This document shows positions 2,074-17,970 of a DNA stretch of 17,970 nucleotides, piece after piece. A program made the position numbers and the translations under genes. The stretch is taken from positions 1 through 17,970 of IMG/VR virus record IMGVR_UViG_2648501130_000005; one strand, written 5' to 3'. Position 1 is the stretch's first letter. Every line of letters begins with the position of its first letter. The notes under the pieces are model-generated. The model saw only the letters and a program-made list of their open reading frames with translations. It had not been told where the DNA came from and made no database searches. Origin of the DNA: a virus. Taxonomy: Duplodnaviria > Heunggongvirae > Uroviricota > Caudoviricetes.

Positions 2074-2095
2074 TCCTCACGCTCCATAAATGACA

Positions 2096-2115: not shown

Positions 2116-2133
2116 CACATAAAACATTTTGCA

Positions 2134-3060: not shown

Positions 3061-3209
3061 GGATCAGTAAGCGTAACTCTGGTAGGCTCACTCTGCTTTT
3101 GCGCTAAAGCAGTGGGCCGTGGTTCGCTTGTGACCAGTAAGCATGAGCGAATGGCTGGCAGGTGCTACCAACACCCACCAGCCGCCCATTTTCACAAATT
3201 AAAAGCCCT

Positions 3210-3404: not shown

Positions 3405-3527
3405 GTCTTTTTACCTTCATGGTTAACATGACATACCAATAACTCTTGTCTAAAAAGCCAGCAAGATAAAAAATCAGTATTCACTACCACCAGCGTGTTT
3501 ACCGTACTGCACCAGGTTTACAGGTAC

Positions 3528-3553
3528 AAAAAAACCCGCTCGACAGCGGGTTT
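3528..3553 (-). terminator. Intrinsic terminator on minus strand (8-bp perfect stem, 5-nt loop, U-run)
   Basis: Plus strand reads AAAAAAA-CCCGCT-cgaca-GCGGGTTT, so the minus-strand RNA has the stem followed by a run of U. No annotated minus-strand gene lies immediately upstream. Confidence 0.5.
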
Positions 3554-3676
3554 AAGCTGTGTGGCGAAGTAACCACTCTTAACAGATTACAAGAATTTTT
3601 GCGGACCGCGTTAATGATTTTTAATCCCAAAGTCGTATTATTCGTTTTTTACTGTAGGAGTTAATAGGTTTATATT

Positions 3677-5008
3677 ATGTTAGATACACTATCTTTCACT
3701 GAACGTGACGAGTTCCAACGAAGAAACATCGCTGAAAATATCATCAAGTTGCTAAAACCAGAGGCAGACATTTCACCACTGGTAATAGACGGCGCATGGG
3801 GAACAGGGAAAACAGAATTTAGTATCAAACTGAAAAATCTCATTATTGAGCAAGAAACTGAATCTAAAGTTGTTTATATTGATGCCTTTAAAGGGGATCA
3901 TGCAGAATCTCCATTACTTCTCATAACCTCTGCAATTGCCAGCATTTTGCCTGAGGAAGAAAAACAACACTTCATTAAGAGATCTCTTCCTGCAATTCGC
4001 TTTGGTTTAAAAACGGTACTAAAAGCTGGTGCAGGTTGGTTTTTACGACAGGAGGCTAGTGAAGTTGCCGAAGAATTCCAAGATGCGATGAAGAAAGCAA
4101 GCAATGCAGCAATAGATGGGACTATTGAAAATTTGCTTGAAGACCATATGGACTCAGAGAAAAACATAAATTCACTTAAATCCTGCATCGAAAGCATATC
4201 AAAAAATCAAAAAATCGTAATTATAATTGATGAATTAGACCGATGTAAGCCGAGTTTTTCAACAAATGTCATTGAAACAATAAAACACATTTTTGACATC
4301 AATAATGTCTTTTTTATTTTAGTTACAAACACAGAACAATTAAAAGCATCTATAAATCATATTTATGGTTATAGCATTAACTCACAAAAGTATCTTGACA
4401 AGTTTATAAAATATACCATCACGCTTCCAGATACATGTTTGATAAATGGTCACAACGTATGTAAAGCCTCTGTTATATATTGGGATTACCTTGTAGAAAA
4501 AACAAGGTTATTGAATAAAATCAATAGATTATCAGGTTACTTTATCCGTGATTTAATTCAACGAACCAACTTATCATTACGTGAAACACAAACATTTTCA
4601 CGCAATCTTAACATTTTCCAACTGTTAAACGACGATGAGAACAAAAGCAGTGATCCTTTAATAAATATGATCTTTGTCGTAGCTGCCTTCATACATTGCT
4701 TTGGTAACAAGGAAAAACTAAAACAAGAAATTACCGCTGAATCTATATCTTATTTAGCAGACCTGCTTAACATAAAAGAAATACCTTATTCTTATGAGAG
4801 AAGATCGCAAATCCCTGAAATATCGATTGTATTCTTCGGAATAATTAAAGACAGTATTACTCTTAATGAGCGATTTGCCCCTAAAAGTGATGAAGAACTT
4901 AAAAAATTCACAAATGTTTATACTGATTATGAACACATAAATTTTTGGAGTACTACACCCAGAGAGTTATTGATAAAATATATTAATCAAATGTCATTCA
5001 TCCAGTAA
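3677..5008 (+). CDS. KAP-family P-loop NTPase (443 aa)
   Basis: Walker A DGAWGTGKT and the KAP-typical Walker B region IVIIIDELDRCKP. Visibly AT-rich with long A/T runs compared with flanking genes. Ends at the hairpin at 5011-5035. Confidence 0.85.
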   Translation: MLDTLSFTERDEFQRRNIAENIIKLLKPEADISPLVIDGAWGTGKTEFSIKLKNLIIEQETESKVVYIDAFKGDHAESPLLLITSAIASILPEEEKQHFIKRSLPAIRFGLKTVLKAGAGWFLRQEASEVAEEFQDAMKKASNAAIDGTIENLLEDHMDSEKNINSLKSCIESISKNQKIVIIIDELDRCKPSFSTNVIETIKHIFDINNVFFILVTNTEQLKASINHIYGYSINSQKYLDKFIKYTITLPDTCLINGHNVCKASVIYWDYLVEKTRLLNKINRLSGYFIRDLIQRTNLSLRETQTFSRNLNIFQLLNDDENKSSDPLINMIFVVAAFIHCFGNKEKLKQEITAESISYLADLLNIKEIPYSYERRSQIPEISIVFFGIIKDSITLNERFAPKSDEELKKFTNVYTDYEHINFWSTTPRELLIKYINQMSFIQ

Positions 5009-5010
5009 AT

Positions 5011-5035
5011 AATACGCCCCATGCAGGGGCGTATT
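5011..5035. terminator. Bidirectional intrinsic terminator between convergent KAP NTPase and Q genes
   Basis: Perfect 10-bp inverted repeat AATACGCCCC / GGGGCGTATT with loop ATGCA, sitting exactly between the KAP stop (5008) and the Q stop (5037), with A/T-rich flanks on both sides. Confidence 0.6.
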
Positions 5036-5036
5036 A

Positions 5037-5402
5037 TTAAACGTCCAAATCTAATGTTAGATCTAGCATGGAAAGGCAGCCATCAATAAATCCTTCGGCT
5101 AGCTGTATTTCTATACGTATCAATTTCTCATCTTTTTTACGAGCCTTGGCGAGCTTTCTTTTAGAGATACCGTATAGGTAATGGGCAACAAGAAGCGAAT
5201 GTTCGTCCGGCCTTTTTTGCTTTAGATGAGCAAGACAACCTTCAATAATTAAGGCATCACTATCCGAACAAGCCAAGCGTTTCTTGCTTGTATAGGGAAG
5301 AAGTCCCTTAAACCCAGCGGCTATAGGTGAATAATCAACGCCTGAACTATCACTCGCCGCCCATGCCCCCCAACGCTCCAGAACCATCTGAATATCACGC
5401 AT
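5037..5402 (-). CDS. Antitermination protein Q (QuuD-like lambdoid late-gene antiterminator)
   Basis: N-terminus MRDIQMVLERWGAWAA... is the signature I recall for E. coli prophage Q/QuuD proteins. ATG at 5402 with GGTGGAGA upstream; the track's first residue is a TTG one codon earlier. Confidence 0.8.
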   Translation of the reverse strand: MRDIQMVLERWGAWAASDSSGVDYSPIAAGFKGLLPYTSKKRLACSDSDALIIEGCLAHLKQKRPDEHSLLVAHYLYGISKRKLAKARKKDEKLIRIEIQLAEGFIDGCLSMLDLTLDLDV

Positions 5403-5419
5403 CAACTTTCTCCACCAAA

Positions 5420-6415
5420 TCAGGCTAGCACACCAATTGCCAACACACGGTCGATAAAACGAAATATCAGCTCCAGCTGGGAGCCATACTTCTCTTCAAA
5501 TGCCACGGTATCCGCATGCAGCTCGTCGTGATGCTTTCTGCACAAAGGCAACACAAAGAGGTCATGCGCTTTTGTACTCATTCCCCCCTGACCGTGGCCT
5601 ATCAGGTGGTGGGGATCATCAGCAGGCTTTCCACAACATGCACACGGCTGTGTCTTAACCCAGCGCGTGTACTTTTCATTAACCCAGCGGCGACGTTTGG
5701 GGCGTAACATAAAAGACTCCGGCGACTCCGGTTCCACTTTCAGCGCCAGCACCTTTTTCGCTTTATCCTGCATGATGCTGGTGGCTGGAACCGAAGGCAC
5801 AAGGTCACTTTCCCGGGTGACAGACGGCACAACAGGCTTCGGTAATCTCAGTGCCTTACGGGCTGCGCTTTCCGGTAAGGCATCCGCCAGATCATTACGA
5901 ACCAGCCACCAGCACAGTTCCGGCATTGTCACAACGTGACTATCATCAAAACCGAGATCCCGACGCACAACAGACAACACCCAGCGGGCACAGTTATCCG
6001 TTGCCATTGATTCCAGCCGTTCCGTGAACTGATCGCGCAGTTGGTTATCGCAGTGCCAGCACAGACGGATTGCGCCAGGCGCGTGTCGCATTGTGGTCAT
6101 GTTCTCGCTGTGCCAGTTGGAATGAGGCCACTGGCAGCCTTTTTCACGAAGTAACCAGCTTTCAAGACATTCCACGCCACCAGCACGACGGATCACTGCC
6201 TCATTGCGGAACACGGCCCGAACGGCAGGATCATCCGCCAGCGGTTGTGATGCCGCCGGAACGGCACCACTGGCGAAAGATGAATAACGTTCCGGCTCAG
6301 GCTCCAGCAGTACACGCCCCTGCATAAACAGGGGCATCAACTCTGAACCTGGCCTGAACAATACGATCCCCATACGCGGGGCAATTTCAGGGGTCAGTAG
6401 TGCTCTCACGGTCAC
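5420..6415 (-). CDS. DUF968-like nin-region protein with C-terminal HNH-like Cys/His motif
   Basis: C-terminal CACCGKPADDPHHLIGHGQGG...LCRKHHDELH; placed between KilA-N and Q as in lambdoid nin regions. Start uncertain: GTG at 6415 or 6409, or ATG at 6373; none has a clean SD. Confidence 0.6.
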   Translation of the reverse strand: MTVRALLTPEIAPRMGIVLFRPGSELMPLFMQGRVLLEPEPERYSSFASGAVPAASQPLADDPAVRAVFRNEAVIRRAGGVECLESWLLREKGCQWPHSNWHSENMTTMRHAPGAIRLCWHCDNQLRDQFTERLESMATDNCARWVLSVVRRDLGFDDSHVVTMPELCWWLVRNDLADALPESAARKALRLPKPVVPSVTRESDLVPSVPATSIMQDKAKKVLALKVEPESPESFMLRPKRRRWVNEKYTRWVKTQPCACCGKPADDPHHLIGHGQGGMSTKAHDLFVLPLCRKHHDELHADTVAFEEKYGSQLELIFRFIDRVLAIGVLA

Positions 6416-6416
6416 C

Positions 6417-7226
6417 TCAATGAACGGTATCGAGCAGCTTTAACAGCTCAGGGAATCGGGATTCGAAGAAATGCGGCTGCGTCTCGCGCGGATTTGCAGG
6501 ACTGGTGATGTTCTTGCCGAACATGCAGCCTTTCGCCGTCAGCGACCAGAATTTTTTGATGTTGTTAATCGCTGTACGGCTGTATCGTTCGCGCTGTTCG
6601 ACGATCCCCAGCTTCGCCATCTGGTGATATGCCTGATTAGCCGTAAGGCGGATACCATACTGTTTCAGCAGTGCACTCAGCGACAGTGTCGGGCGACTTG
6701 AGCCATCAGGCGCGTCAGCAGGAGCATCAATGGCATAGCGCGGTGCCAGATTCGGTAAGCCAACAGCCTCCTGGAGTTTCTGACAGGCCCCAAGCACTGA
6801 AGAGTTAGACAGGTTTAACTCCCTGCGCATAAAGTCCAGCAGAATCACGCCAGCCTGCATCTTGTCAGCAGCCTGCCCGGATAATTTTTCCGGTGCGCTG
6901 GTTACCATATCGAAAGTACGGATCACCTTCAGATGGAATGACGGGCTGATCCACATTGCATAGGCATACACCAGTTCTTTGCAGACATACGTCCCCTGGT
7001 TATTTCCGCCATTAATGACGCTAACTGGTTGATTTTGTTCCAGAGGCGGAATTCCACCCTCGGTGAAAAGTTGTTCAATCAATTCACAGGTTTGCTTATT
7101 GGAGAGCCAGTATTTCGGGCGGTTTTTTTGTTCTCCCCCGGCTGCCCTGTGCAGATCGTTCAGGCTGTAACGCCCATAAGCATCACGACGAACTTCAATA
7201 CCATCAATGACCATCAGATTATTCAT
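6417..7226 (-). CDS. KilA-N domain protein
   Basis: N-terminal MVIDGIEVRRDAYGRYSLNDLHRAAGG...YVCKELVYAYAMWISPSFHLKVIR is KilA-N-like. ATG at 7226 with AGGAGA 9 nt upstream; the track's GTG at 7259 was rejected. Confidence 0.7.
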   Translation of the reverse strand: MNNLMVIDGIEVRRDAYGRYSLNDLHRAAGGEQKNRPKYWLSNKQTCELIEQLFTEGGIPPLEQNQPVSVINGGNNQGTYVCKELVYAYAMWISPSFHLKVIRTFDMVTSAPEKLSGQAADKMQAGVILLDFMRRELNLSNSSVLGACQKLQEAVGLPNLAPRYAIDAPADAPDGSSRPTLSLSALLKQYGIRLTANQAYHQMAKLGIVEQRERYSRTAINNIKKFWSLTAKGCMFGKNITSPANPRETQPHFFESRFPELLKLLDTVH

Positions 7227-7245
7227 ACTTCGTTTCTCCTCTTGA

Positions 7246-7635
7246 TCAGGCGGCTGCACCCGCCGTTTTCTCGTACTTACTGATAGTGATCTCGACCTTC
7301 CCTTCCGGGATAACCGGTCCCCACTCCACCAGCATTCTTTTCACCTGGCTGTCGTCTTCCCACACACCCGCGTGGGTCAGGGCGTCAAACAGCGCCTTGT
7401 TATAGTTGTCCAGATCGCGGATCCGGTTATCCGGAGGAAACAACACGATCTCCACTGAAGCAGGTGCCGACGTTGGTTTCGGCAGACGACGTAACTGCTC
7501 AACTATTGCTGTGCACGCCGCACTTTGGAATTTTCGCCCCGCCGCGCTTATCAGGCTCTTACCAGCAAATGCCCCTTTGTTGGGGTGTCGCCAGTAGGTG
7601 TTCACGCTGGGTGGAAAAGGCAGAATCAGCTTCAT
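7246..7635 (-). CDS. rusA: Holliday junction resolvase RusA
   Basis: LPFPPSVNTYWRH ... RDLDNYNKALFDALTHAGVWEDDSQV matches the RusA family signature. Start ATG overlaps the upstream stop (ATGA). Confidence 0.85.
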   Translation of the reverse strand: MKLILPFPPSVNTYWRHPNKGAFAGKSLISAAGRKFQSAACTAIVEQLRRLPKPTSAPASVEIVLFPPDNRIRDLDNYNKALFDALTHAGVWEDDSQVKRMLVEWGPVIPEGKVEITISKYEKTAGAAA

Positions 7636-7958
7636 ACTTTCAGCCCCCTCTCATGTAACCAGTGGGCTGCACGCAGCCTTGCGTTTTCCTCACCGGCAAG
7701 CAGTGAGCGGATAATCCCGACCGCCTCGCTGTCGTCGTCCTTCACCGCGGTATGAAGCGTGATCCCCCGGGCCACACCACGCTTTATCGTGATGACGCCT
7801 TTTTTCTCCAGTGCGCGAAGATGCTCCACCGCTGCATTCACCGAACGGTATCCCAGCATGGTTGCCACCTCCTGATTGGTTGGCGGGAAGCCGCGTTCTT
7901 TCTGATAAGAAATCAGCATATCCAGCACCTGCTGCTGGCATTGAGTTAACGTCGTCAT
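7632..7958 (-). CDS. LexA N-terminal DNA-binding-domain-like protein (no peptidase domain)
   Basis: LTQCQQQVLDMLISYQKERGFPPTNQEVATMLGYRSVNAAVEHLRALEKKGVITIKRGVARGITL aligns closely with the LexA N-terminal winged helix as I recall it (…RSPNAAEEHLKALARKGVIEI…). Only 108 aa, so no S24 cleavage domain. ATGA overlaps at both ends. Confidence 0.75.
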   Translation of the reverse strand: MTTLTQCQQQVLDMLISYQKERGFPPTNQEVATMLGYRSVNAAVEHLRALEKKGVITIKRGVARGITLHTAVKDDDSEAVGIIRSLLAGEENARLRAAHWLHERGLKV

Positions 7959-8608
7959 GCCGCCATCTCCCTGACCAGTTTTTCTGCCTGCTGGCGAATC
8001 TGCGCCAGAAAGGCCTCACCACATGCCTCAAGTTCATCGCGCCCGATGTAGCTGATTGCCGGTCCCTTCCAGGTCTTGTCGAAAACAGCAATAGCACCAG
8101 CGAAGAAAGCGCCTGTCGGCACCTGCTTCTCATCCTTCGGGATAAACCAGGCAGGCAGTTCAAAACCAATACGCCCGCGAATAAAAGCAATATGATCTAC
8201 ATCTTCCGGCCACCACACTTCGCTGGTGGCAGCTTTGATCAGGAAAACATAGCGCCCGCCTTTATCACGCATGGCACTGGCATGCTTCATGATGTAACGC
8301 ATGCCGGTGATGTATTGCCCCTCATGCTGACTGGCGCGGCTGTATGGGGGATTACCAAAGGCAGCACCTTTAAGCTCCGCAAGGCGTTCTGACCAGTCAT
8401 GCGCCAGCGCGTTGTCTTCCGCCGTGTAATACGCAGCACATTTGGCGTTATCACCGTCAGTGAACAGATCCAGAACAAACGGGCCAAACAGGGTGTTAAT
8501 TCCCCAGAAAATGTTGTCCGGCGTGCGCCACTGATCGCCCACTTCCTTCAGTTCATGGGCTGGTTTGTTCCGCAGTTCCACCAGCGCCTGGCAATATTTA
8601 TTACTCAT
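7955..8608 (-). CDS. Phage N6-adenine DNA methyltransferase (Dam-type)
   Basis: GNPPYS (NPPY catalytic motif). ATG at 8608 with GTGGGGG upstream, overlapping the upstream TAA (TAATG). The track's GTG extension to 8641 was rejected. Confidence 0.75.
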   Translation of the reverse strand: MSNKYCQALVELRNKPAHELKEVGDQWRTPDNIFWGINTLFGPFVLDLFTDGDNAKCAAYYTAEDNALAHDWSERLAELKGAAFGNPPYSRASQHEGQYITGMRYIMKHASAMRDKGGRYVFLIKAATSEVWWPEDVDHIAFIRGRIGFELPAWFIPKDEKQVPTGAFFAGAIAVFDKTWKGPAISYIGRDELEACGEAFLAQIRQQAEKLVREMAA

Positions 8609-9096
8609 TAAGCCCCCACGTAATTCCCTGAGAGATACCACTCTTCACCTGATGCAGCCCGCTTACTGCTTTTCCGTAAACACCGTTCACGACGCGCCAA
8701 AAAATTGTTTCGTTCTGGCAGGGAGTGGCTTTCACGGAATGCCGCCATCCACACCGTTGCAGCACGACGGTATAAGCCCCTGGACTCCAGTTCTTCCGCC
8801 TGGCGGGTCAGGCACAAAATCACCCGCGGGTCGTTAGTGCCGACATAGAAATTGCGCACAGGTCTGGTTTCACGAACTGGTTGTGGTTCCGGATCCTGCG
8901 CTCTCTCAGTCAGGCGCGGGAAATGTCTGTGTGTATCTCCTTCACAACGGTGAGCCACACGCCCACTCTGACGTAACTTGCTTGCTGACTGCAGAACGCG
9001 CTGCCGTGAGTAACCTGCAAAAGCATCCGCAATGTCTCCGGAAGTACAGCCCGGATGGGCTTCAATGAATTTCTGAACGTCATTCAAAAGACTCAT
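8608..9096 (-). CDS. Putative transcriptional regulator with PerC-like C-terminal region
   Basis: AEELESRGLYRRAATVWMAAF resembles the PerC/Pch core motif (LESAGFWRRAAARW type). ATG at 9096 with GGGGGTGA upstream, 2 nt after the replication gene stop. Confidence 0.55.
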   Translation of the reverse strand: MSLLNDVQKFIEAHPGCTSGDIADAFAGYSRQRVLQSASKLRQSGRVAHRCEGDTHRHFPRLTERAQDPEPQPVRETRPVRNFYVGTNDPRVILCLTRQAEELESRGLYRRAATVWMAAFRESHSLPERNNFLARRERCLRKSSKRAASGEEWYLSGNYVGA

Positions 9097-9098
9097 GC

Positions 9099-9869
9099 TC
9101 ACCCCCTGAATCCTGCCGGGATCTGGCTGTAGTCCACATTGTCGTAACTGGCTTTGAAGTACGGGTCTTCGCGTTTTTCTGTGTACGTGCTGACGGACGG
9201 CGATAAGCGCAGGGAAAGCTCATCCCATTTTTCCCGCAGCTTCGACGGGCTGAGCACGTTACGGCACCAGAACGGATCGCGGCTGACGCGGCTGTACATC
9301 TCGCAGATTTGTTTGTGAGTACGACCATCCTGCACACACATCAGGCGAATTTCGTTTGCCCAGGCTGTCCAGTTCGGTTCTTTGGGACGAACCACCTCGC
9401 CGTCACATTCGGCAGCCTGCTCGTACAGGGCGATGATTTTTTTCCAGAGCCACTGTGCGCAGGTCAAATCATCCTGCGTCCCCCACTGGCGCTTTTTAGG
9501 GCTGAATACAACCGCATCAGGATGGCGAGTTAAAAAATCCTGTTCATCCGTCTGCGTGTCCGGTTGCGAAGCGTCCGGACGAGAAGGTTTTTTATCTGAC
9601 GGATCATGTTTTGATTTTACTGACGGATCCCCGCCAGATTCTGACGGGTGAAAACCCGCTTTTTTGCCAGATTTCGACGCATCAAATTTTGACGGGTCAG
9701 ATTTTGATGCGTCAGATTTTGACGGGTCAGAATCTGACAGTTGAGAAAATGCCGCTGCCTGAAGCTTCGCAACGTTAAGCTGATAAACATTCGACGCATT
9801 GCGGTTACCCACGGTTAGCCTCATCGTTCTGTGGTTTCTGTTAATCGATTTATCCATTAGATTTTTCAT
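9099..9869 (-). CDS. Replication initiation protein (lambda O-like role) with internal iteron-encoded peptide repeats
   Basis: Sits directly downstream of cro. The central SDSDPSKSDASKSDPSKFDASKSG region is encoded by tandem DNA repeats. Start uncertain: ATG at 9869, 9857 or 9824; the track's first codon at 9926 is GTG and lies deep inside cro. Confidence 0.6.
   Translation of the reverse strand: MKNLMDKSINRNHRTMRLTVGNRNASNVYQLNVAKLQAAAFSQLSDSDPSKSDASKSDPSKFDASKSGKKAGFHPSESGGDPSVKSKHDPSDKKPSRPDASQPDTQTDEQDFLTRHPDAVVFSPKKRQWGTQDDLTCAQWLWKKIIALYEQAAECDGEVVRPKEPNWTAWANEIRLMCVQDGRTHKQICEMYSRVSRDPFWCRNVLSPSKLREKWDELSLRLSPSVSTYTEKREDPYFKASYDNVDYSQIPAGFRG
9590..9740. repeat. Iteron array (putative origin of replication) inside the replication initiator gene
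   Basis: At least seven tandem ~15-17 bp copies of a (C)AGATTTTGACGGGTCA-like unit, e.g. attttgacgggtcag / attttgatgcgtcag / attttgacgggtcag. Analogous to the lambda ori iterons inside gene O. Confidence 0.6.
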
Positions 9870-10050
9870 AAAGCTCAGGTTTAAATGGCAACCGTCCGCA
9901 AGTTCTATATGCAGCTTCTGCTGCACGTCCTTTTGGAATTAACTGGCCCGGACGGTTTCGCCACTGATAAACGGCTTCAGTTGTTATGCCGAAAAAAGCA
10001 GCAACTTTCTCAATACTGCCGAAGTAGCTTTCGATATCGTCAGTTGTCAT
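9850..10050 (-). CDS. Cro-like transcriptional regulator
   Basis: 66 aa, divergent from the repressor gene; KVAAFFGITTEAVYQWR is a Cro/YdaS-type helix-turn-helix. Confidence 0.7.
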   Translation of the reverse strand: MTTDDIESYFGSIEKVAAFFGITTEAVYQWRNRPGQLIPKGRAAEAAYRTCGRLPFKPELYEKSNG

Positions 10051-10147
10051 ACGCCCTCCAAACTAAGTTTTATTAGATGCTAATTACAAATCTATCTTTG
10101 GTCAATAAAAACTAAGATTACTTAGCAATTAAAGAAATGGTGCTCCT
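10051..10147. promoter_or_regulatory. Divergent promoter/operator region between cro-like and cI-like genes
   Basis: 97-bp AT-rich intergenic region with two 14-bp palindromes: CTAAGattaCTTAG (10112-10125, perfect) and CTAAGttttATTAG (10063-10076, one mismatch). Minus strand carries TTGACC and a possible -10. Confidence 0.55.
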
Positions 10148-10774
10148 ATGGAAACGGTTGGTCAGCGTATAAAAGCTCTGAGAAGAGTTACCAGAACGTC
10201 CCAGAAAGAATTGGGTAAATTTTGTGGAGTAAGCGACGTTGCTGTGGGGTACTGGGAGAAAGACATCAATACCCCTGGTGGGGAGGCACTTTCGAAATTA
10301 GCGAAGTTCTTCAATACGTCAATAGATTACATTCTTTATGGTGCTGAGTTTGAAGGCAAACTCGTCACAAACATGCGCAGAGTTCCTGTAATATCGTGGG
10401 TTCAGGCTGGGCAGTTTACTGAGTGCAGGGCAGCAGAAGTGTTTAGTGAAGTGGACAAGTGGGTAGATACATCATTAAAGGTTGGTGATAACTCATTTGC
10501 ATTAGAGGTTAAAGGTGACTCCATGACTAACCCTAATGGCCTCCCAACAATACCAGAAGGCGCAACAGTGATTGTAGATCCAGATGCAGAACCTCGTCAT
10601 GGAAAAATAGTCATCGCTCGACTTGATGGAACAAACGAAGCTACAGTAAAAAAATTAGTCATCGATGGCCCTCAAAAGTTTTTAGTACCATTAAATCCTC
10701 GGTATCCCAACATCCCTATCAATGGTAATTGCCTTATCATTGGTGTAGTCAAAGGAGTTCAATACGAACTCTAA
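10148..10774 (+). CDS. CI-like prophage repressor (HTH plus S24 LexA-type autopeptidase domain)
   Basis: N-terminal XRE-type HTH (QKELGKFCGVSDVAVGYWE); C-terminal GDSM and a downstream Lys (VKKLV) typical of S24 self-cleaving repressors. SD-like sequence before the ATG. Confidence 0.85.
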   Translation: METVGQRIKALRRVTRTSQKELGKFCGVSDVAVGYWEKDINTPGGEALSKLAKFFNTSIDYILYGAEFEGKLVTNMRRVPVISWVQAGQFTECRAAEVFSEVDKWVDTSLKVGDNSFALEVKGDSMTNPNGLPTIPEGATVIVDPDAEPRHGKIVIARLDGTNEATVKKLVIDGPQKFLVPLNPRYPNIPINGNCLIIGVVKGVQYEL

Positions 10775-10927
10775 GGCCTCTCTTCTCTAACTAAGGCACC
10801 GAACTAAGAAAAGTTTGGTGTTTTCTCTTGCCATGACAACTAAGTTAAGTTAGATTTTATATCAAAGATAACGAACAGGCAGGACGCCCACGAAGTAGCC
10901 GCCTGGGGCATATGAAGTCCAGGATGA

Positions 10928-10952
10928 TTCGTTAGCAACAAAAAAGCGCCCT
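10928..10952 (-). terminator. Intrinsic terminator on minus strand downstream of the 173-aa gene
   Basis: On the minus-strand RNA: 7-bp stem AGCGUCC / GGGCGCU (one G-U pair), loop UGUA, then UUUUUUGUU. The G-U pair forms only on the minus-strand transcript. Confidence 0.5.
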
Positions 10953-11004
10953 ACAGGACGCTTAGCTCTTTAACAATCTGGGTATCATCCAACCAATGCA
11001 AGAT

Positions 11005-11526
11005 TTAAGGAATCCAAGGCGAATTCAGATCTCGCCCCAACTCACGTAATGATCTTGGTCGTTCGTACATCGGATTTTTTTCCATAAGAAATTTATTTTC
11101 ACAGTGAAGGCAACGGCTTGTAAGAAAATGAGAAGTTTTACCTACTGGAAGCGGATGAAGTATCGATTTTATATTTTTGGAATAACAAAGTGGGCACAGA
11201 TGCACAGTTATTTCTTTTCCACTCACAATTTCATTTTTAGAGTAAACAAAAGCACCAGAGTCAAGCTGATCAAGGACATATCCTTCTACCTTGGCACAAA
11301 AATCTTCAAACTCTGCAATTTTTGCTTTGAGATGCATCACCTCTTCATCACGAAGGCGGATCGCATCGCCAAGAGAGAAGCATTCTGCCTGAAGCGTGAT
11401 TAGTTTGTTCTGGAGTTCAATGGTTGCAGCTTTAACTTCTGCATCCGTTTTCGCGTCATTAATAACCTTAGCAAGACCGGCAGTCTCCTTTATAGCGGCC
11501 ATAGCCGCAGACAGTTCAGCTATCAC
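11005..11526 (-). CDS. Hypothetical coiled-coil / zinc-ribbon protein (moron convergent with cI)
   Basis: 173-codon ORF; N-terminal half is Ala/Lys/Glu-rich helical, C-terminal part has CPLC ... CLHC. C-terminal half is visibly AT-rich. Start is GTG at 11526 or ATG at 11502; neither has a strong SD. Confidence 0.6.
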   Translation of the reverse strand: MIAELSAAMAAIKETAGLAKVINDAKTDAEVKAATIELQNKLITLQAECFSLGDAIRLRDEEVMHLKAKIAEFEDFCAKVEGYVLDQLDSGAFVYSKNEIVSGKEITVHLCPLCYSKNIKSILHPLPVGKTSHFLTSRCLHCENKFLMEKNPMYERPRSLRELGRDLNSPWIP

Positions 11527-11542
11527 GTTGAATACTCAGCTA

Positions 11543-11586
11543 GTTGTTGGGGATATCCAGATTAACCAAATCCTTGTTGTTGGGGA
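11543..11586. repeat. Two exact 11-bp direct repeats GTTGTTGGGGA, 33 bp apart, just upstream of the 173-aa gene
   Basis: Seen directly at 11543-11553 and 11576-11586; function unknown. Confidence 0.5.
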
Positions 11587-11848
11587 ATAACTAGGTCCAC
11601 CTCGCCTGATGTGGCTAAAAGCAGGCACATAACAGCTAAGTATTTTCAACCAGAGAGAATCCTTAGCGTTGTGGTGAATGCGGCTCAGCGCACGCGGGTT
11701 AAGGTTGAGGCTGACAGTCGACCTTCTGTGGATACCCACCCGCCTGGTGTGCAACCTTCGCCAGGCACCGGGAGGCACCCGGCACCACAACTTTATGCTG
11801 TGTGTAGTCCTCGCGGTACCAGTTTGTACACTTGCTTCCGGCTGGTAC

Positions 11849-11947
11849 CGCTCTTTTTACAAAACAGAGAAGAACATCACCGGACGACGGGCTCATAACC
11901 CAATCCATCCGGGCGGCTGCCACCGCAGGTGTTCTTCTCTGTTTTGT
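11849..11947 (+). promoter_or_regulatory. boxA-like motif followed by an 18-bp perfect inverted repeat enclosing 53 nt (nut-like site or structured leader)
   Basis: CGCTCTTTTTAC (11849-11860) resembles boxA. Arms ACAAAACAGAGAAGAACA (11859-11876) and TGTTCTTCTCTGTTTTGT (11930-11947) are exact reverse complements. Lies 49 nt upstream of the yfdP-like ATG. Confidence 0.45.
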
Positions 11948-11995
11948 GGAGAAACCAACCGACCTTGCAGGGTCGATATGATTAGGAGCAGAAAA

Positions 11996-12358
11996 ATGGC
12001 TAGCGAACGCAGTACTGATGTGCAGGCATTTATTGGGGAGCTGGACGGCGGCGTATTTGAAACCAAAATCGGCGCAGTTCTCAGTGAAGTCGCTTCCGGT
12101 GTGATGAACACGAAAACCAAAGGTAAGGTCTCACTCAACCTGGAAATCGAACCATTTGATGAGAACCGTGTGAAAATCAAACACAAACTCTCATATGTTC
12201 GCCCGACTAACCGCGGGAAAATTTCCGAAGAAGACACCACCGAAACGCCGATGTATGTCAATCGCGGTGGTCGCCTGACTATTCTGCAGGAAGACCAGGG
12301 ACAATTACTGACTCTTGCCGGTGAACCTGACGGAAAACTCCGCGCAGCAGGTCATTAA
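11996..12358 (+). CDS. yfdP: YfdP-like early-left protein (120 aa)
   Basis: ATG at 11996 with AGGAG 7 nt upstream; the track ORF from 11678 is an unsupported upstream extension. Length and position match the yfdP-yfdQ-yfdR order I recall from CPS-53. Confidence 0.55.
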   Translation: MASERSTDVQAFIGELDGGVFETKIGAVLSEVASGVMNTKTKGKVSLNLEIEPFDENRVKIKHKLSYVRPTNRGKISEEDTTETPMYVNRGGRLTILQEDQGQLLTLAGEPDGKLRAAGH

Positions 12359-12423
12359 TATCGTTCTTAATTAACCGATTATTTATCTCATCACTGAATA
12401 TCTTTATATAGTGAGGACTTATT

Positions 12424-13248
12424 ATGTCTCAGAACTTAGACGCAACCGCAATTAATCAAATCCATGCCCTTATTTCTGCTCAGGGTGTTAATGAAATTAT
12501 CAGTAAGATTGGTGCCGATGCTGTGGCATTGCCTGAGAATTTCCGCATTCATGATCTGGAAAAATTTAATTTAAATCGCTTCCGTTTCCGTGGTGCGCTT
12601 TCCACTGCCAGCATCGATGACTTTACCCGTTACTCTAAAGATCTTGCAGATGAAGGCACCCGCTGCTTTATCGATGCCGATAATATGCGAGCCGTCAGTG
12701 TGCTTAACCTGGGTACTATTGATGAACCAGGTCACGCAGATAACACCGCCACACTCAAACTGAAAAAGACAGCACCGTTCTCTGCTCTGTTGTCTATTAA
12801 CGGCGAGCGTAACTCCCAGAAGTCACTAGCAGAATGGATTGAAGACTGGGCAGACTATCTTGTGGGCTTTGATGCTAATGGTGACGCTATTCAGGCAACA
12901 AAAGCGGCTGCGGCTGTCCGTAAAATCACGATTGAAGCAAACCAGACCGCTGATTTTGAAGATAATGACTTCAGCGGCAAACGCTCCCTGATGGAGTCTG
13001 TCGAAGCGAAGACCAAAGATATTATGCCTGTGGCATTTGAATTTAAATGCGTTCCGTTTGAAGGCCTGAAAGAACGTCCGTTTAAATTACGCCTCAGCAT
13101 TATCACTGGCGATCGTCCTGTACTGGTTCTGCGCATTATTCAGCTGGAAGCAGTGCAGGAAGAAATGGCTAACGAATTTCGTGATCTGCTTGTTGAGAAA
13201 TTCAAGGACAGCAAAGTAGAAACCTTTATTGGTACTTTCACCGCCTGA
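12424..13248 (+). CDS. yfdQ: YfdQ-like protein (DUF2303 family, 274 aa)
   Basis: GAGGA 6 nt upstream of the ATG. Length and N-terminus [14 protein letters not shown]... match my recollection of K-12 YfdQ. Confidence 0.7.
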
Positions 13249-13260
13249 TTTCATTACTGC

Positions 13261-13282
13261 AAATGCCCCTGCGGGGGCATTT
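13261..13282 (+). terminator. Hairpin downstream of yfdQ-like gene (possible partial terminator or attenuator)
   Basis: AAATGCCCC tgcg GGGGCATTT: perfect 9-bp stem, but only a short T-run follows. Confidence 0.4.
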
Positions 13283-13375
13283 ATGGAAACGTAATTGACT
13301 CAATAATCGCCGGATGGTGAGGGCTTCCTTTTACCAGAATTCAGCGCGGTGCAGCGCATATACGTGGAGAACAAA

Positions 13376-13912
13376 ATGTCATTTATTAAAACTTTTTCCG
13401 GGAAGCATTTTTATTATGACAGGATAAATAAAGACGACATCGTTATTAACGATATCGCGGTTTCTCTTTCAAATATCTGTCGCTTTGCAGGGCATCTTTC
13501 ACATTTCTACAGCGTTGCCCAACATGCGGTGCTTTGCAGCCAACTGGTACCGCAGGAATTTGCTTTTGAAGCGTTAATGCATGATGCAACAGAAGCGTAT
13601 TGCCAGGACATCCCGGCGCCACTGAAACGCCTTCTTCCTGACTATAAACGGATGGAAGAAAAAATAGATGCAGTAATCCGTGAGAAATACGAGTTGCCCC
13701 CGGTTATGAGCACGCCCGTGAAATATGCCGATCTCATCATGCTGGCAACCGAACGCCGTGATCTCGGGCTTGATGATGGCTCTTTATGGCCTGTACTGGA
13801 AGGTATCCCGGCAACAGAGATGTTCAAAGTTATTCCACTGGCACCGGGCCATGCCTACGGGATGTTTATGGAACGCTTCAACGAGTTATCGGAATTACGC
13901 AAATGTGCATAA
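13376..13912 (+). CDS. yfdR: HD-domain phosphohydrolase (YfdR-like, 178 aa)
   Basis: H...HD motif (AQHAV ... LMHDATEAY). ATG at 13376 with GGAGA upstream; the track's GTG at 13349 was rejected. Its 3' end overlaps the next gene by 10 nt. Confidence 0.8.
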   Translation: MSFIKTFSGKHFYYDRINKDDIVINDIAVSLSNICRFAGHLSHFYSVAQHAVLCSQLVPQEFAFEALMHDATEAYCQDIPAPLKRLLPDYKRMEEKIDAVIREKYELPPVMSTPVKYADLIMLATERRDLGLDDGSLWPVLEGIPATEMFKVIPLAPGHAYGMFMERFNELSELRKCA

Positions 13913-14781
13913 CTCATGTAGTTAGTTTTTCTGGCGGGAGAACATCCGCATATCTTGTTCACCTGATGGAAGAACAAAGAAAGGCTGGCAATAACGTCTG
14001 CTACATCTTTATGGATACCGGTTGCGAACATCCGCTGACATACCGCTTTATCCGGGAGGTTGTGAAGTTCTGGGACATACCACTAACTGTGTTACAGGTC
14101 GATATAAATCCTGAGCTTGGGCAGCCAAATGGTTATACAGAATGGGAGCCAAAGGATATTCAGACACGAATGCCGGTGCTTAAACCGTTTATGGACATGG
14201 TTAAAAAGTACGGCACGCCATACATCGGCGGCGCGCTCTGTACTGATAGGCTAAAACTCATCCCTTTCACAAAATACTGCGATAACCATTTCGGGCGAGG
14301 TAATTACATCACATGGCTGGGTATTCGTGCAGACGAACCCCGTAGGCTGAAACCGAAATCGGGCGTCCGGTATCTTGCCGAGCTGTCAGATTTTGATAAG
14401 TCGGATGTTATCCGGTGGTGGCGAAAACAACCTTTTGATTTGCAAATCCCGGAGCATCTCGGGAACTGTGTTTTCTGCATCAAAAAGTCAACGCAAAAGC
14501 TGGGGCTTGCATGTAAAGACGAACCAGGTCTGATGCGAGTTTTTAATGAGCTGGTTACAGGCAAACACGTCAGGGATGGTCATCGCAGAACAGGTAAAGA
14601 CATTATGTACCGTGGTCACCTGACGCTTGACGGAATTGCCAGAATGTCTGCCAACAGCGACTACAGAAATTTGTATCAGGCGATGGTACAGGCCAGGCGA
14701 TTCGATACCGGCTCGTGTTCAGAGTCATGTGAAATCTGGGGTGATCAATTGGAATTGGAATTCAAAGAGGTAGGGGTATGA
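13903..14781 (+). CDS. PAPS-reductase-like PP-loop ATP pyrophosphatase family protein with C-terminal Cys cluster
   Basis: PP-loop VVSFSGGRTSAYL near the N-terminus; Cys pairs (CVFC, CSESC) near the C-terminus. ATG at 13903 overlaps the HD gene stop; the track's 13786 start is an upstream in-frame extension inside the HD gene. Confidence 0.8.
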   Translation: MCITHVVSFSGGRTSAYLVHLMEEQRKAGNNVCYIFMDTGCEHPLTYRFIREVVKFWDIPLTVLQVDINPELGQPNGYTEWEPKDIQTRMPVLKPFMDMVKKYGTPYIGGALCTDRLKLIPFTKYCDNHFGRGNYITWLGIRADEPRRLKPKSGVRYLAELSDFDKSDVIRWWRKQPFDLQIPEHLGNCVFCIKKSTQKLGLACKDEPGLMRVFNELVTGKHVRDGHRRTGKDIMYRGHLTLDGIARMSANSDYRNLYQAMVQARRFDTGSCSESCEIWGDQLELEFKEVGV

Positions 14782-15122
14782 CAACCGAAATTAACTACCA
14801 TGCACTGCTTGAGCGCGCACGGAATAAAGTGCAGAGCATTGAGTTCGCCTTAACACAGAGTGCATTCGCTGAGATTCGCGCTGAGCTTGAAAATGATTTA
14901 GAACTGGCACGGATTGCACTGGCATCTCTGGAAGTTGAGCCAGATGAACGCGCAGCCTATGAATTATTTATGGAAAAGCGTTTCGGTAAAACAGTCGATC
15001 GTCGGAGAGCAAAAAACGGCGATAACGAATACATGGCATGGGATATGACTCTCGGTTGGATCGTCTGGCAGCAACGAGCTGGTATCCATTTTTCAACAAT
15101 GTCACAGCAAGAGGTGAAATAA
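14778..15122 (+). CDS. Hypothetical early protein (114 aa)
   Basis: ATG overlaps the upstream TGA (ATGA) and its TAA overlaps the xis ATG (TAATG). GAGG/GGGG upstream. No recognisable motif. Confidence 0.6.
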   Translation: MTTEINYHALLERARNKVQSIEFALTQSAFAEIRAELENDLELARIALASLEVEPDERAAYELFMEKRFGKTVDRRRAKNGDNEYMAWDMTLGWIVWQQRAGIHFSTMSQQEVK

Positions 15123-15472
15123 TGGAGCCATACAGCCTCACACTCGATGAGGCCTGTCATTTTCTCAAGATATCCAGACCGACTGCCATTAACTGGATAC
15201 GCACAGGGCGTCTTCAGGCAACACGCAAAGATCCCACTAAGAATAAATCTCCTTACCTCACAACACGACAAGCCTGCATTGCGGCTCTTCAGTCTCCGCT
15301 GCATACTGTCCAGGTGAGCGCGGGTGATGGCATAACAGAGGAAAGAAAATGTCACTCTTCCGCAGAGGTGAAATATGGTACGCCAGTTTCACATTGCCGA
15401 ACGGTAAAAGATTTAAACAGTCTCTTGGAACAAAGGACAAAAGGCAGGCGACAGAACTCCATGACAAGCTAA
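15122..15472 (+). CDS. xis: Excisionase (Xis), 116 aa
   Basis: ATG at 15122 with GAGGTGA upstream. HTH-like [24 protein letters not shown]. Overlaps the int start as in lambda/P22 xis-int. The track's 15038 start is an unsupported extension. Confidence 0.7.
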
Positions 15473-16512
15473 AGGCTGAAGCATGGCGGGTCAGCAAACT
15501 TGGTGAAATACCTGATATAACGTTCGAGGAAGCGTGTGTCAGGTGGCTTGAAGAGAAAGCACATAAAAAATCACTGGACGATGACAAAAGCCGGATCGGA
15601 TTCTGGCTTCAACATTTCGCAGGAATGCAACTAAGAGACATTACTGAATCAAAAATTTATTCAGCAATGCAGAAAATGACGAACCGGCGTCATGAGGAAA
15701 ACTGGAAACTCAGGGCAGAAGCATGCAGAAAAAAAGGGAAACCTGTTCCAGAATACACGCCAAAACCAGCGTCCGTTGCAACGAAGGCTACGCATCTTTC
15801 ATTTATAAAGGCCCTACTAAGAGCCGCAGAGCGTGAATGGAAAATGCTGGATAAGGCACCAATTATTAAAGTGCCTCAACCAAAGAATAAACGGATCCGC
15901 TGGCTGGAGCCCCATGAAGCACAAAGGCTGATTGATGAATGTCCGGAGCCATTAAAGTCTGTTGTTGAATTTGCACTGGCAACAGGCTTAAGACGCTCGA
16001 ACATCATCAACCTTGAATGGCAACAAATAGATATGCAGCGCCGGGTGGCATGGATAAACCCAGAAGAGAGTAAATCAAACCGCGCAATCGGCGTTGCGCT
16101 GAATGATACTGCATGTCGCGTTTTGAAAAAACAAATCGGGAATCATCACCGTTGGGTATTTGTGTACAAGGAAAGCTGTACCAAACCAGACGGAACGAAA
16201 GCGCCAACAGTAAGGAAGATGCGGTATGACGCAAACACAGCCTGGAAAGCGGCGCTGAGACGGGCTGGTATTGATGATTTCAGATTTCACGACTTGAGAC
16301 ACACCTGGGCAAGTTGGCTGGTTCAAGCCGGAGTCCCGTTGTCAGTGTTACAGGAAATGGGAGGCTGGGAGTCTATCGAAATGGTTCGTCGATATGCTCA
16401 CCTTGCACCTAATCACCTTACCGAACACGCACGGCAAATAGACTCGATCCTGAACCCATCGGTCCCAAATTTGTCCCAGTCAAAAAATAAGGAAGGTACT
16501 AATGATGTGTAA
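15349..16512 (+). CDS. int: Tyrosine-recombinase phage integrase (P22-type, thrW-specific), 387 aa
   Basis: AGAGGAAAG upstream of the ATG. Catalytic HDLRHTW ... RYAHL motifs. Stops 14 nt before the tRNA-Thr 3' end. Confidence 0.9.
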
Positions 16513-16526
16513 CTTATTGATTTAAA

Positions 16527-16602
16527 TGGTGCCGATAATAGGAGTCGAACCTACGACCTTCGCATTACGAATGCGCTGCTCTACCAACTGAGCTATATCG
16601 GC
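16527..16602 (-). tRNA. thrW: tRNA-Thr (anticodon CGU)
   Basis: Reverse complement reads GCCGATATAGCTCAGTTGGTAGAGCAGCGCATTCGTAATGCGAAGGTCGTAGGTTCGACTCCTATTATCGGCACCA: 7-bp acceptor stem, GTTCGA T-loop, anticodon loop with CGT, encoded CCA. Confidence 0.9.
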
Positions 16603-16716
16603 CCTGAAAGGACATGTTCACGAACGTGAATCACGGTGGACAAGGTTAAAACTAACCGGGCGATGCGTCAATGGCCTTGTGAATCAAATGGCTACTTTTG
16701 CATCACCCGGTTTTAT

Positions 16717-17970
16717 TTACGCACGAATGGTGTAATCACCAATACCGATCCACTTGTAAGTGGTCAGTGCTTCCAGCCCCATTGGGCCACGCGCGTGGAG
16801 TTTTTGTGTGCTTACCGCCACTTCCGCACCTAGTCCAAACTGGCCGCCGTCGGTAAAACGCGTAGAGGCGTTAACGTAAACAGCGGACGAATCCACTTCG
16901 TTAACAAAACGCTGGGCGTTGCGCATATCGCGGGTCAGGATCGCATCGGAGTGTTGTGTGCCGTGTTCACGAATATGGGCGATGGCATCGTCAAGATCAC
17001 TGACGATTTTGACGTTCAAATCTAATGACAGAAACTCATCGTCATACTCTTCCGCTTTAACAGCCACCACCTTCGCGGGGCCTGTCTGCAACTGCGCCAG
17101 CGCAGCTGCATCTGCGTGTAATGCCACGCCGCTTTCCTCCATTTGTTTGCTTAATGCGGGCAGGAAGCTATCGGCGATGTTTTTATTCACCAGCAACGTT
17201 TCTACCGTATTACATGTGCTCGGACGCTGAGTTTTCGCGTTGACGATCACTTTTAATGCTTCAGCAATCTCTACACTTTCATCAACATAAATATGGCATA
17301 CGCCTATACCACCTGTGATCACCGGGATCGTCGACTGTTCGCGGCACAGTTTATGCAAACCAGCGCCACCACGCGGGATCAGCATGTCGATGTATTTATC
17401 CATACGCAGCATTTCACTGACCAGCGCACGGTCAGGATTATCAATCGCCTGCACGGCACCCACCGGTAAGCCACAGGATTTCAGGGCGTCCTGAATCACC
17501 GCCACCGTTGCCGCGTTAGTGCGACAGGTTTCTTTACCGCCACGCAGAATCACTGCGTTACCGGTTTTCAGGCACAGCGAAGCGACATCAACCGTCACGT
17601 TCGGGCGCGCTTCATAAATCACGCCAATAACCCCCAGCGGTACGCGACGACGCTCAAGACGCAGGCCGCTGTCCAGTACGCTGCCATCGATTACCTGCCC
17701 CACCGGATCGGCGAGGTTACACACCTGGCGCACATCATCGGCAATGCCTTTCAGCCGTGCGGGCGTCAGTGCCAGACGGTCAAGCATCGCTTCGCCAAGG
17801 CCATTGGCACGCGCGTCAGCAACATCCTGGGCGTTAGCGTTGAGGATGATTTCGCTTTGTGCTTCCAGTTCATCGGCGATTTTTTCCAGCACGCGATTTT
17901 TTTCGCGGCTGGAGAGTTGCGCTAATTTATACGAGGCTTGCTTCGCGGCAATGCCCATTTGTTCCAGCAT
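16717..17970 (-). CDS. proA: Gamma-glutamyl phosphate reductase ProA (417 aa, host gene)
   Basis: Full-length ORF starting exactly at the window end; [40 protein letters not shown]... matches E. coli ProA as I recall it. Confidence 0.95.

Follow-up and report, generated by a model that had tools for sequence, protein, structure and literature searches.

We analyzed the immunity region of a tailed phage (Duplodnaviria; Heunggongvirae; Uroviricota; Caudoviricetes) represented by IMG/VR record IMGVR_UViG_2648501130_000005. Positions 1 to 17,970 of that record were covered; this whole stretch is called the window, and all coordinates refer to it. Judging from its sequence and that of its relatives, we put at roughly 0.8 the probability that the DNA around its cI-like repressor gene is the immunity region of an SfV/e14-like lambdoid prophage, with repressor sites at both a right operator (OR) and a left operator (OL) and with an early-left promoter (pL) that specifies a structured leader RNA. 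The binding of repressor to these sites and the activity of the promoters are proposed by analogy with the paradigm set by phages lambda, P22, and 434.

Putative operator palindromes at the cI/cro switch and beyond cI

The features that make up the switch and the region just after cI are as follows.

9850-10050, minus strand: cro-like gene, 66 aa (Pfam P22_Cro, E = 4e-11; the solved N15 and P22 Cro structures are matched; RefSeq names it a Cro/CI family regulator)
10063-10076, palindrome: OR-a, CTAAGTTTTATTAG, one mismatch to CTAAG-N4-CTTAG; abuts the -10 hexamer of the early-right promoter (pR) and covers the predicted pR start
10077-10105, minus strand: pR-like promoter toward cro, TTGACC (10105-10100)-17-TAGCAT (10082-10077), found by promoter scan, function putative
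10112-10125, palindrome: OR-b, CTAAGATTACTTAG, perfect; 6 bp upstream of the pR -35 hexamer and 22 bp before the cI start codon
10148-10774, plus strand: cI-like repressor gene, 208 aa (Pfam HTH_3 and Peptidase_S24); stop codon TAA at 10772-10774
10771-10775, plus strand: isolated CTAAG spanning the cI stop codon, not regarded as an operator
10793-10831, plus strand: predicted intrinsic terminator of cI, with a 13-bp hairpin at 10793-10824 and the U-rich run UUUUCUCUU at 10821-10829, the first four U's of which lie in the 3' arm
10804-10817, no strand: two-mismatch copy of the palindrome, CTAAGAAAAGTTTG, whose 5' arm and 36-bp distance to OL are kept in a Kluyvera prophage
10828-10856, plus strand: pL-like promoter, TTGCCA (10828-33)-17-TAGATT (10851-56), sigma-70-like, found by promoter scan directly after the cI terminator
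10840-10853, palindrome: OL, CTAAGTTAAGTTAG, within the pL spacer and overlapping the first 3 bases (TAG) of the pL -10 hexamer

The cro-like and cI-like genes diverge from a 97-bp interval, as in a lambdoid immunity region. Residues 3 to 65 of the repressor match the N-terminal domain of P22 c2 (1adr, 2r1j, and 3jxb; E of about 5e-10), a homologous helix-turn-helix DNA-binding domain of the P22 c2/434 type, and its C-terminal domain matches that of lambda cI (E = 5e-28). Beyond cro, the minus strand carries genes for an O-like initiator with 15-bp iterons, a PerC-like activator, a methylase, and RusA. Because these replication and regulatory genes lie below cro on the minus strand, we take that strand as the early-right side and the plus strand as the early-left side.

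The original prediction described one perfect and one near-perfect 14-bp palindrome in the divergent region and four CTAAG motifs within about 85 bp after the cI stop codon. All of these motifs were found in place. The starts of OR-a and OR-b are 49 bp apart, and the plus-strand CTAAG copies begin at 10771, 10791, 10804, and 10840, within 85 bp as described, except that the first copy overlaps the stop codon rather than following it. Over the full window, CTAAG is rarer than expected (16 copies versus 23.9 expected), and 7 of the 16 fall within 10063-10844; four copies in 85 bp were matched by 1 of 1,000 dinucleotide-preserving shuffles. There are three copies of CTAAG-N4-CTTAG with one mismatch or less, compared to an average of 0.32 in shuffles (a count of 3 was reached by 5 of 1,000). 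The form CTAA-N6-TTAG has exactly three copies where 0.13 would be expected (0 of 200 shuffles reach 3), and the positions are 10063, 10112, and 10840 only in 17,970 bp, so that OR and OL share one candidate operator sequence. Enrichment over shuffled sequence exists in both of these forms but not at two mismatches, where five copies were observed and 5.1 expected. Because that count equals expectation, the two-mismatch copy at 10804-10817 has no statistical support of its own.

Conservation was assessed in relatives drawn from 80 viral contigs with the same repressor and from phage and genome records; together they gave 51 distinct sequences of 9850-10940, including an Escherichia coli group that is about 5% diverged. 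No column varied among the 14 of OR-b or the 14 of OL, and one of 14 varied in OR-a. Thus, 1 of 42 operator columns is variable, compared to 71 of 255 noncoding columns overall (28%; hypergeometric P = 5e-6). The one variable position is an A/G difference at 10072, the innermost base of the OR-a right arm, where OL itself has G; for this reason we define the arms as CTAA and TTAG and regard the fifth base as tolerant. Downstream of cI, 10840-10856, which comprises OL and the -10 hexamer, is invariant, while seven of the nine positions in 10831-10839 vary.

The most stringent comparison was provided by a prophage of Kluyvera sichuanensis, whose nucleotide identity to the window is 74% in cI, 76% in the OR spacer, and 67% in the region after cI. 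OR-a is identical there, OR-b is changed at one central base only, all six arms are kept, and a 23-nt block at OL, AACTAAGTTAAGTTAGATTTTAT, is identical at 23 of 23 positions next to a better -35 hexamer (TTGACC). The 49-bp spacing at OR and the 36-bp spacing from the 10804 copy to OL are also retained. Across the three sites and their relatives, the central 4 to 6 bases differ and the CTAA/TTAG arms do not, as in a symmetric 14-bp operator. Repressors of the P22 c2/434 family bind symmetric operators of about 14 to 18 bp with conserved outer arms and a variable center that is not contacted.

The two predicted promoters, pR and pL, are the only intergenic promoter-like matches in 9700-12500, and each adjoins or overlaps an operator site. 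As consensus matches supported by conservation, they place OR-a against the pR -10 hexamer and OL in the pL spacer and -10 hexamer, which is the overlap expected of operators and early promoters. In Kluyvera, the pR -35 is kept and the -10 reads TAGTAT. The pL -35 of the relatives reads TTGTCA, TTGCTA, TTGCCT, or TTGACC, the last being that of Kluyvera. The original prediction saw no obvious promoter or gene on the plus strand downstream of cI. No protein gene was found there, in agreement with that statement, but the conserved pL-like promoter is present, and its product would be a noncoding leader.

Phages with other immunity types show the same arrangement. SfV is 98% identical to the window over the 60 nt after pL despite having a different repressor. 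In SfV, ZF40, and ST64B, a repressor gene and a terminator are followed in order by a -35 hexamer, a palindrome akin to the phage's own OR sites (TGTACC...GGTACA in SfV, GTAAC...GTTAC in ZF40, and TTGCGCA...TGCGCAA in ST64B), a -10 hexamer, and the same leader. SPN3UB has the same order with TATCGATTGAATCGATA as its pL palindrome, although its OR sites share only the ATCGAT/TCGATA half-site. In all five other-immunity phages examined, the leader follows a repressor gene and a promoter with the phage's own palindromes, and a -35/-10 pair was read by eye at the equivalent place in four of the five and in most of 96 species-level loci. The immunity-specific palindrome thus appears to change within a constant frame, which is the pattern expected of OL and pL. 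The cI gene, the terminator, pL/OL, and the leader behave as one inherited block. Past cI, mosaic breakpoints lie at about 10923-37 or 10976-78, so that pL and OL are inherited together with cI.

These data suggest how the switch would work. A repressor dimer most likely recognizes the 14-bp CTAA-N6-TTAG (extended form, A-CTAAG-N4-CTTAG-T) at three sites, with a P22-c2-type domain that would bind DNA and a lambda-cI-type C-terminal domain that would be cleavable and oligomerizing. In the lysogen, bound to OR-a, it would block pR, turning off transcription of cro and the replication genes, and on OL it would silence the pL early-left operon that leads to xis and int. OR-b probably sets cI expression, or is the site at which Cro shuts off cI, or both. 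On SOS induction, RecA-stimulated cleavage of the S24 domain would free pR and pL.

Several observations weigh against this reading. There are two operators at OR and one at OL, not the three tandem sites per side with an activatable repressor-maintenance promoter (pRM) of the lambda, 434, and P22 pattern, and cooperative or looping behavior cannot be assumed from such an arrangement. The 49-bp spacing at OR corresponds to about 4.7 helical turns, which is out of phase. The pL-like promoter scores only 9 of 12 against the consensus, and the promoter scan total is not above that of shuffled sequence (3 versus 4.8), so that the case for pL is drawn from conservation and context, not from the scan. 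No pRM reached the threshold of the promoter scan. Finally, Kluyvera has retained the CTAAG of the terminator loop, so that this copy might be a weak second OL site.

Two pRM candidates read by eye, TTATTA-17-TATCTT (10070-10098) and TGGTCA-18-TAGCAA (10099-10128), have only 7 of 12 consensus matches each. An ArcA box at OL was set aside: the repeats in GTTAAGTTA within OL have the wrong spacing for an ArcA box, and the primers for sRNA-17, an RNA discussed below, map to the STnc100 locus and not to pL. A small palindrome, ATTAG-ATG-CTAAT at 10072-10084, overlaps the OR-a right arm and the pR -10 hexamer; it is probably incidental, and its right arm reads CTAAA in Kluyvera, where the symmetry is lost.

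The original prediction saw the motifs after cI as consistent with an OL-like operator set. One operator, at 10840-10853, stands, but not a cluster, as this is the only full palindrome among the four motifs and the only one invariant in the relatives. That several dimers or monomers bind an array across 10771-10853 seems to us quite unlikely, even though its motif density was reached by only 1 of 1,000 shuffles, three of the four motifs share the longer AACTAAG with both OR sites, and the 10804 copy is kept in Kluyvera with its 36-bp distance to OL. The CTAAG at 10771 has become CTAGC or CTAGT throughout the 95%-identical E. coli group, and that at 10791 has become CCAAA or CCAAG in most of it; both are gone in Kluyvera. 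The copy at 10804 reads CCAAG in two E. coli variants and is retained in the Kluyvera terminator loop. All three lack a matching TTAG arm at operator spacing: the best of them, 10804-10817, reads TTTG in that otherwise invariant arm, and two-mismatch palindromes are no commoner than chance. Their positions have another explanation. The first lies on the stop codon, and the other two lie in the cI terminator hairpin (-15.1 kcal/mol; z = -3.4; 0 of 200 shuffles equally stable), 10791-95 at the base of the stem and 10804-08 at its top and in the loop. Kluyvera has an equivalent hairpin (z = -4.3), and a G-to-A change at 10801 in relatives converts a G-U pair of the stem to A-U. Because this hairpin accounts for the copies at 10791 and 10804, they need no role in binding. 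At best, 10804-10817 is a weak second OL site, and the terminator alone accounts for its conservation. From these comparisons, the three extra copies appear to be by-products of the stop codon and terminator, not operators. The lambda cI C-terminal domain mediates looping between OL and OR, and with a repressor C-terminal domain of this type and a site directly past the cI terminator, 10840-53 might serve mainly as an anchor for looping to OR or as a roadblock that ends cI transcription, not as the operator of a promoter. We consider this very unlikely. The flanking -35 and -10 hexamers are conserved, with -35 variants drifting toward consensus; 10851-56 is invariant although it extends past the operator arm; a consensus-like -35 occupies the same place in four other-immunity phages; and a conserved RNA structure begins about 8 nt after the predicted start. 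Looping would in any case be compatible with repression of pL. The least credible alternative, which we hardly entertain, is that the palindromes are functionless chance products of AT-rich intergenic DNA. The AT-richness itself, the lack of overall enrichment in the promoter scan, and the two-mismatch count fit this view, but the observed counts were reached by 0 of 200 and 5 of 1,000 shuffles, the arms are invariant over 51 variants and across genera while 28% of flanking columns vary, and the same architecture recurs in phages of other immunity types. We retain the two cI/cro palindromes as putative repressor operators, as first proposed, on the basis of their excess over shuffles, their conservation, and their positions relative to the promoters.

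A conserved leader RNA at the start of the predicted pL transcript

Three further features follow pL.

10871-10932, plus strand: structured leader RNA, 62 nt, with helices P1 (10871-75/10928-32), P2 (10878-80/10886-88), and P3 (10902-06/10919-23) and a possible pseudoknot (10898-900/10907-09)
10944-10963, no strand: hairpin AAGCGCC-CTACA-GGACGCTT, found by terminator scan as a strong minus-strand terminator (for the convergent gene) and a weaker plus-strand hairpin
10964-10976, plus strand: boxA-like sequence AGCTCTTTAACAA, one mismatch to the boxA of rRNA operons (rrn) and the only match at two mismatches or less in the window

The leader starts about 8 nt past the predicted pL start, and P1 begins about 15 nt after the -10 hexamer. 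A blastn search found the leader core in 49 phage records from at least eight host genera. An exact search for a 20-nt core in one genome per species gave 96 stretches, nearly all from Enterobacterales and including Xenorhabdus, Yersinia, Pectobacterium, and Klebsiella among many genera; two were chance matches that lacked the rest of the motif. RNAalifold folded 90 sequences into a three-way junction of 13 pairs, 9 of which show compensatory changes. With one P1 pair and the pseudoknot added (17 pairs), 95% of alignment cells were paired, compared to at most 45% when the partners were slid. The covariation score was 0.52; shuffles gave 0.15, and none of 500 attained the observed value. P2 and a 25-nt core are invariant, in part since the search required the core, and the GCC/GGC pseudoknot has modest support from 3 compensatory and 15 wobble changes. 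No Rfam family matched 10857-10935 at E values up to 5 in a 3-kb scan or up to 10 in a 141-nt scan, and a full-text literature search for the invariant core sequence found no paper. The leader is a widely conserved RNA that has apparently escaped description.

The leader is associated with a position, not with a particular gene. The upstream same-strand open reading frame (ORF) is cI-like by phmmer in 36 of 72 loci; many of the remaining ORFs are short helix-turn-helix repressors as read by eye, and some are other genes of about 300 aa that lie between the repressor and pL. The first genes downstream belong to unrelated families. PHROGs gave no N-like protein after pL, and in seven phages none of the genes that first follow the leader is of an N-like family. 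In mEp460_4F5, a plus-strand gene comes straight after the leader. When the window and five phage loci, the pR side included, were searched with a covariance model of the leader, no second copy was found; each phage carries one. In the e14 prophage of E. coli K-12 MG1655, the motif lies between ymfK (cohE) and ymfJ (NC_000913.3 1202108-1202180, minus strand; 73 bits; E = 5e-27), where no RNA is annotated. The virulent, T5-like Providencia phage vB_PreS_PR1 has it in its terminal repeat (70 bits), with a compensated P1 (GGAAC/GUUCC) and an enlarged P2 loop. There it directly follows a strong promoter (TTGCTT...TATACT), precedes a boxA-like CGCTCTTTAAAAA by 10 nt, and lies upstream of the pre-early genes, including that for the A2 DNA transfer protein.

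Some variants of the leader were also seen. A degenerate fragment lies between racR and ydaG in the Rac prophage. In a subfamily of about 20 species loci that includes SPN3UB, mEp237, and their relatives, P1 is CCACC/GGTGG or CATC/GATG, and a second conserved block, TTAACGCGCAGCAGG...ACGTTCCGCCAGCCTGGCGA, lies within 60 nt after the motif. The leaders of Xenorhabdus and Photorhabdus are followed by a different conserved block that ends in a terminator. These second blocks may be further structured parts of the leader.

Three other candidates were examined and rejected. A possible leader peptide, ATG AAG TCC AGG ATG ATT CGT TAG/TGA within the motif in the window and SfV, has ACG in place of ATG in many relatives, and its reading frame is not conserved. 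A hammerhead or other small ribozyme was discounted, as no permutation of the hammerhead core, judged by eye, places the GAA-like and UGA-like junction strings in the sequence seen here and Rfam gave no match. A weak match to the leader model (11.8 bits) inside yfdR (13566-13635) recurs in SfV only since the gene is homologous.

The rrn boxA consensus is TGCTCTTTAACAA. With one mismatch or less, GCTCTTTAAC was found in 17 of 94 species loci no more than 160 nt beyond the leader, versus 1 in a threefold amount of control sequence, which would place a boxA in the nascent leader as in nut- and rrn-type systems. A lambda-type N protein was not found among the first genes of the seven phages examined, and here the hairpin precedes boxA, unlike the lambda boxB, which lies 3' of boxA. 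The hairpin at 10944-10963 has a centroid free energy of -11.5 kcal/mol on the minus strand (minimum free energy [MFE], -12.1 kcal/mol) and an MFE of -7.5 kcal/mol on the plus strand, and it recurs with variable loops after the leader in many species, even before a plus-strand gene. The larger module at 10936-10978, AACAAAAAAGCGCCC-N4-GGACGCTT-N-GCTCTTTAACAATCTGG, combines an A-run, the hairpin, and boxA; it too recurs with variable loops after the leader in several genera, whatever follows. It reads as a strong terminator on the minus strand, boxA serves as its U-rich tail on the plus strand, and a mosaic junction lies just after it, at about 10976-78.

Control of transcription elongation is the most likely role of the leader, but not a strong reading. 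We favor it because the leader is tied to a promoter position and not to a gene, lies at the 5' end as HK022 putL does, and co-occurs with boxA, and because it is found in phages lacking N and in the first operon of a lytic phage and, in the window, terminators and an antisense stretch precede the early-left genes. The pL transcript would present the 62-nt three-helix RNA first, then the hairpin, and then the boxA-like sequence, and the leader would let RNA polymerase pass the hairpin terminator, 520 nt antisense to the convergent gene, and the terminator of STnc100. More specifically, and only as a tentative suggestion, the leader, often with boxA, could be a cis-acting element of a new class that confers processive antitermination, or an element that modifies RNA polymerase in another way.

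The observation that the window has no plus-strand gene for 800 nt raises a different possibility, that pL makes a stand-alone, repressor-controlled, trans-acting RNA of about 100 nt that ends at the 10944-63 hairpin, with no operon behind it. The hairpin and the CUCUUU that follows could terminate transcription on the plus strand, the leader-plus-hairpin module recurs in many species, and RNAs that bind a conserved partner typically have an invariant core such as the 25 nt seen here. We nevertheless consider this account unlikely. In mEp460_4F5, SfV, ZF40, SPN3UB, and many species loci, the leader enters plus-strand genes with no intervening terminator, and a terminator-like site lies within about 130 nt downstream in only 30 of 96 loci. 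On the plus strand, the hairpin is weak (-7.5 kcal/mol) and has a poor U run, and the boxA-like sequence after it suggests control of elongation.

Genomic setting and neighboring genes

Positions 9805-11700 are 100% identical to E. coli chromosomes in which the prophage adjoins tRNA-Thr and proA, and 156 complete genomes have exactly this block. The order on the chromosome is ymfL, the cro-like gene, a LexA-family repressor gene, a hypothetical gene, yfdP, yfdQ, yfdR, and integrase. The nearest phages are vB_EcoS-569R4, vB_EcoM-689R6, and mEp460_4F5; SfV, SfII, and SfIV share the region only in part. By these matches, the window belongs to an SfV/e14-like E. coli prophage inserted at tRNA-Thr next to proA.

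On the early-right side, five 15-bp iterons of the CAGATTTTGACGGGT type and two further, more distant repeats lie at 9591-9742 within the O-like replication initiator gene, and this stretch is presumably the phage origin. An Rfam match to mir-5880 arises from the iteron repeats and is therefore spurious. On the early-left side, a convergent 173-aa gene (11005-11526, minus strand; PHROG 1244, E = 3e-52; function unassigned) has its own strong terminator. It is an insertion between the pL leader and the early-left genes, and in relatives this position is occupied by other cassettes.

One further feature lies between that insertion and yfdP.

11638-11860, plus strand: STnc100 RNA (Rfam, 49.1 bits; gathering score, 47)

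This is the sole real Rfam match near the leader. sRNA-17 of E. coli K1 RS218 was described as novel, with no Rfam homologue, and was validated by rapid amplification of cDNA ends (RACE) and Northern blotting; the same study screened GTTA-N-GTTA sites in an mEp460-like prophage (PMC7719688). The primers listed for it (PMC7719688, Table S2) match both ends of the locus equivalent to that of STnc100, and from these matches, sRNA-17 appears to belong to the STnc100 family. The frameshifted hypothetical protein that RefSeq places on this stretch (about 11671-11981 of the window) is probably not a gene.

Relation to known systems and significance

The switch shares with lambda the divergent repressor and cro genes with common palindromic operators, the second operator location beyond cI at the early-left promoter, and the homologous repressor C-terminal domain with its S24 self-cleavage domain. 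Unlike lambda, it has 14-bp and not 17-bp sites, in a 2+1 and not a 3+3 arrangement, and a DNA-binding domain of the P22 c2 and not the lambda type. Lambda has the rex genes between cI and pL, whereas here pL directly follows the cI terminator, and lambda has N after pL and a pRM, whereas here no N-like family was found among the first genes after the leader and no pRM was recognizable. The P22 operator is ANTNAAG-N4-CTTNANT and that of 434 is ACAA-N6-TTGT. With P22, the window shares the homologous c2 N-terminal domain and P22_Cro as well as the TAAG-N4-CTTA core of the operators, but the outer specificity base is T in P22 (TTAAG) and C here (CTAAG), and the number and spacing of sites differ. 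The 434 operator has the same design as the one here, being 14 bp long with the four outer bases of each arm invariant and a center that varies. No description of a CTAAG-N4-CTTAG immunity specificity was found in the literature searched. The operators are an ordinary feature of a lysis/lysogeny switch, one further specificity of the P22/434-type repressor family, and the leader RNA is the part worth following.

The closest functional parallel to the leader is HK022 put. putL lies just downstream of PL, and put is a cis-acting antiterminator RNA that reportedly needs no dedicated trans-acting protein factors (PMC9378689). Both putL and the leader are structured RNAs of about 60 to 70 nt within a few nucleotides of the pL start. 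They differ in that put consists of two long stem-loops and the leader of a three-way junction that is followed by a boxA-like sequence in a subset of loci, and in that put has copies after both pL and pR and the leader is single and on the pL side only. Neither the leader covariance model nor blastn found a match in the HK022 pL or pR leaders (putL and putR). A homology to put through the shared short strings ACGAAC and CAGGATGA was considered and dropped, as the covariance model does not support it. Like the rrn leader antiterminator (boxB hairpin, boxA, and boxC), the window has a hairpin directly before boxA in the leader of a long, partly untranslated transcription unit; here, however, the hairpin also serves the convergent gene as its terminator, and a canonical boxA is present in only 17 of 94 leader loci. 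No boxC was seen, although no search was aimed at one. Compared to lambda nut, the order of boxA then boxB is reversed, and no N-like family was found.

SfII, SfV, and SfIV are reported to lack N, cII, and cIII (PMC3851460). HK022 likewise lacks N. We found no explanation in the literature searched for how the N-less SfII, SfV, and SfIV carry early transcription past terminators. A paper by Roberts et al. from 2007 (J Gen Virol 88:3187) reportedly deals with transcription-termination immunity in SfV and may bear on the leader or on STnc100. Carriers of the leader include SfV, SfII, SfIV, the K-12 prophage e14, ST64B, SPN3UB, mEp237, and ZF40, the lack of N being reported for the first three.

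The operators locate pL and amend how a common E. coli prophage is annotated, and it is because pL was placed that a strongly covarying RNA with no Rfam family was exposed at the first nucleotides of the early-left transcripts. If the proposal for the leader is true, it would let the early operons of temperate Enterobacterales phages that lack N read through terminators and Rho-sensitive untranslated stretches, and, despite its unrelated fold, it would be a functional counterpart of HK022 put. The leader with boxA is a concrete candidate for this function and can be tested genetically in E. coli K-12.

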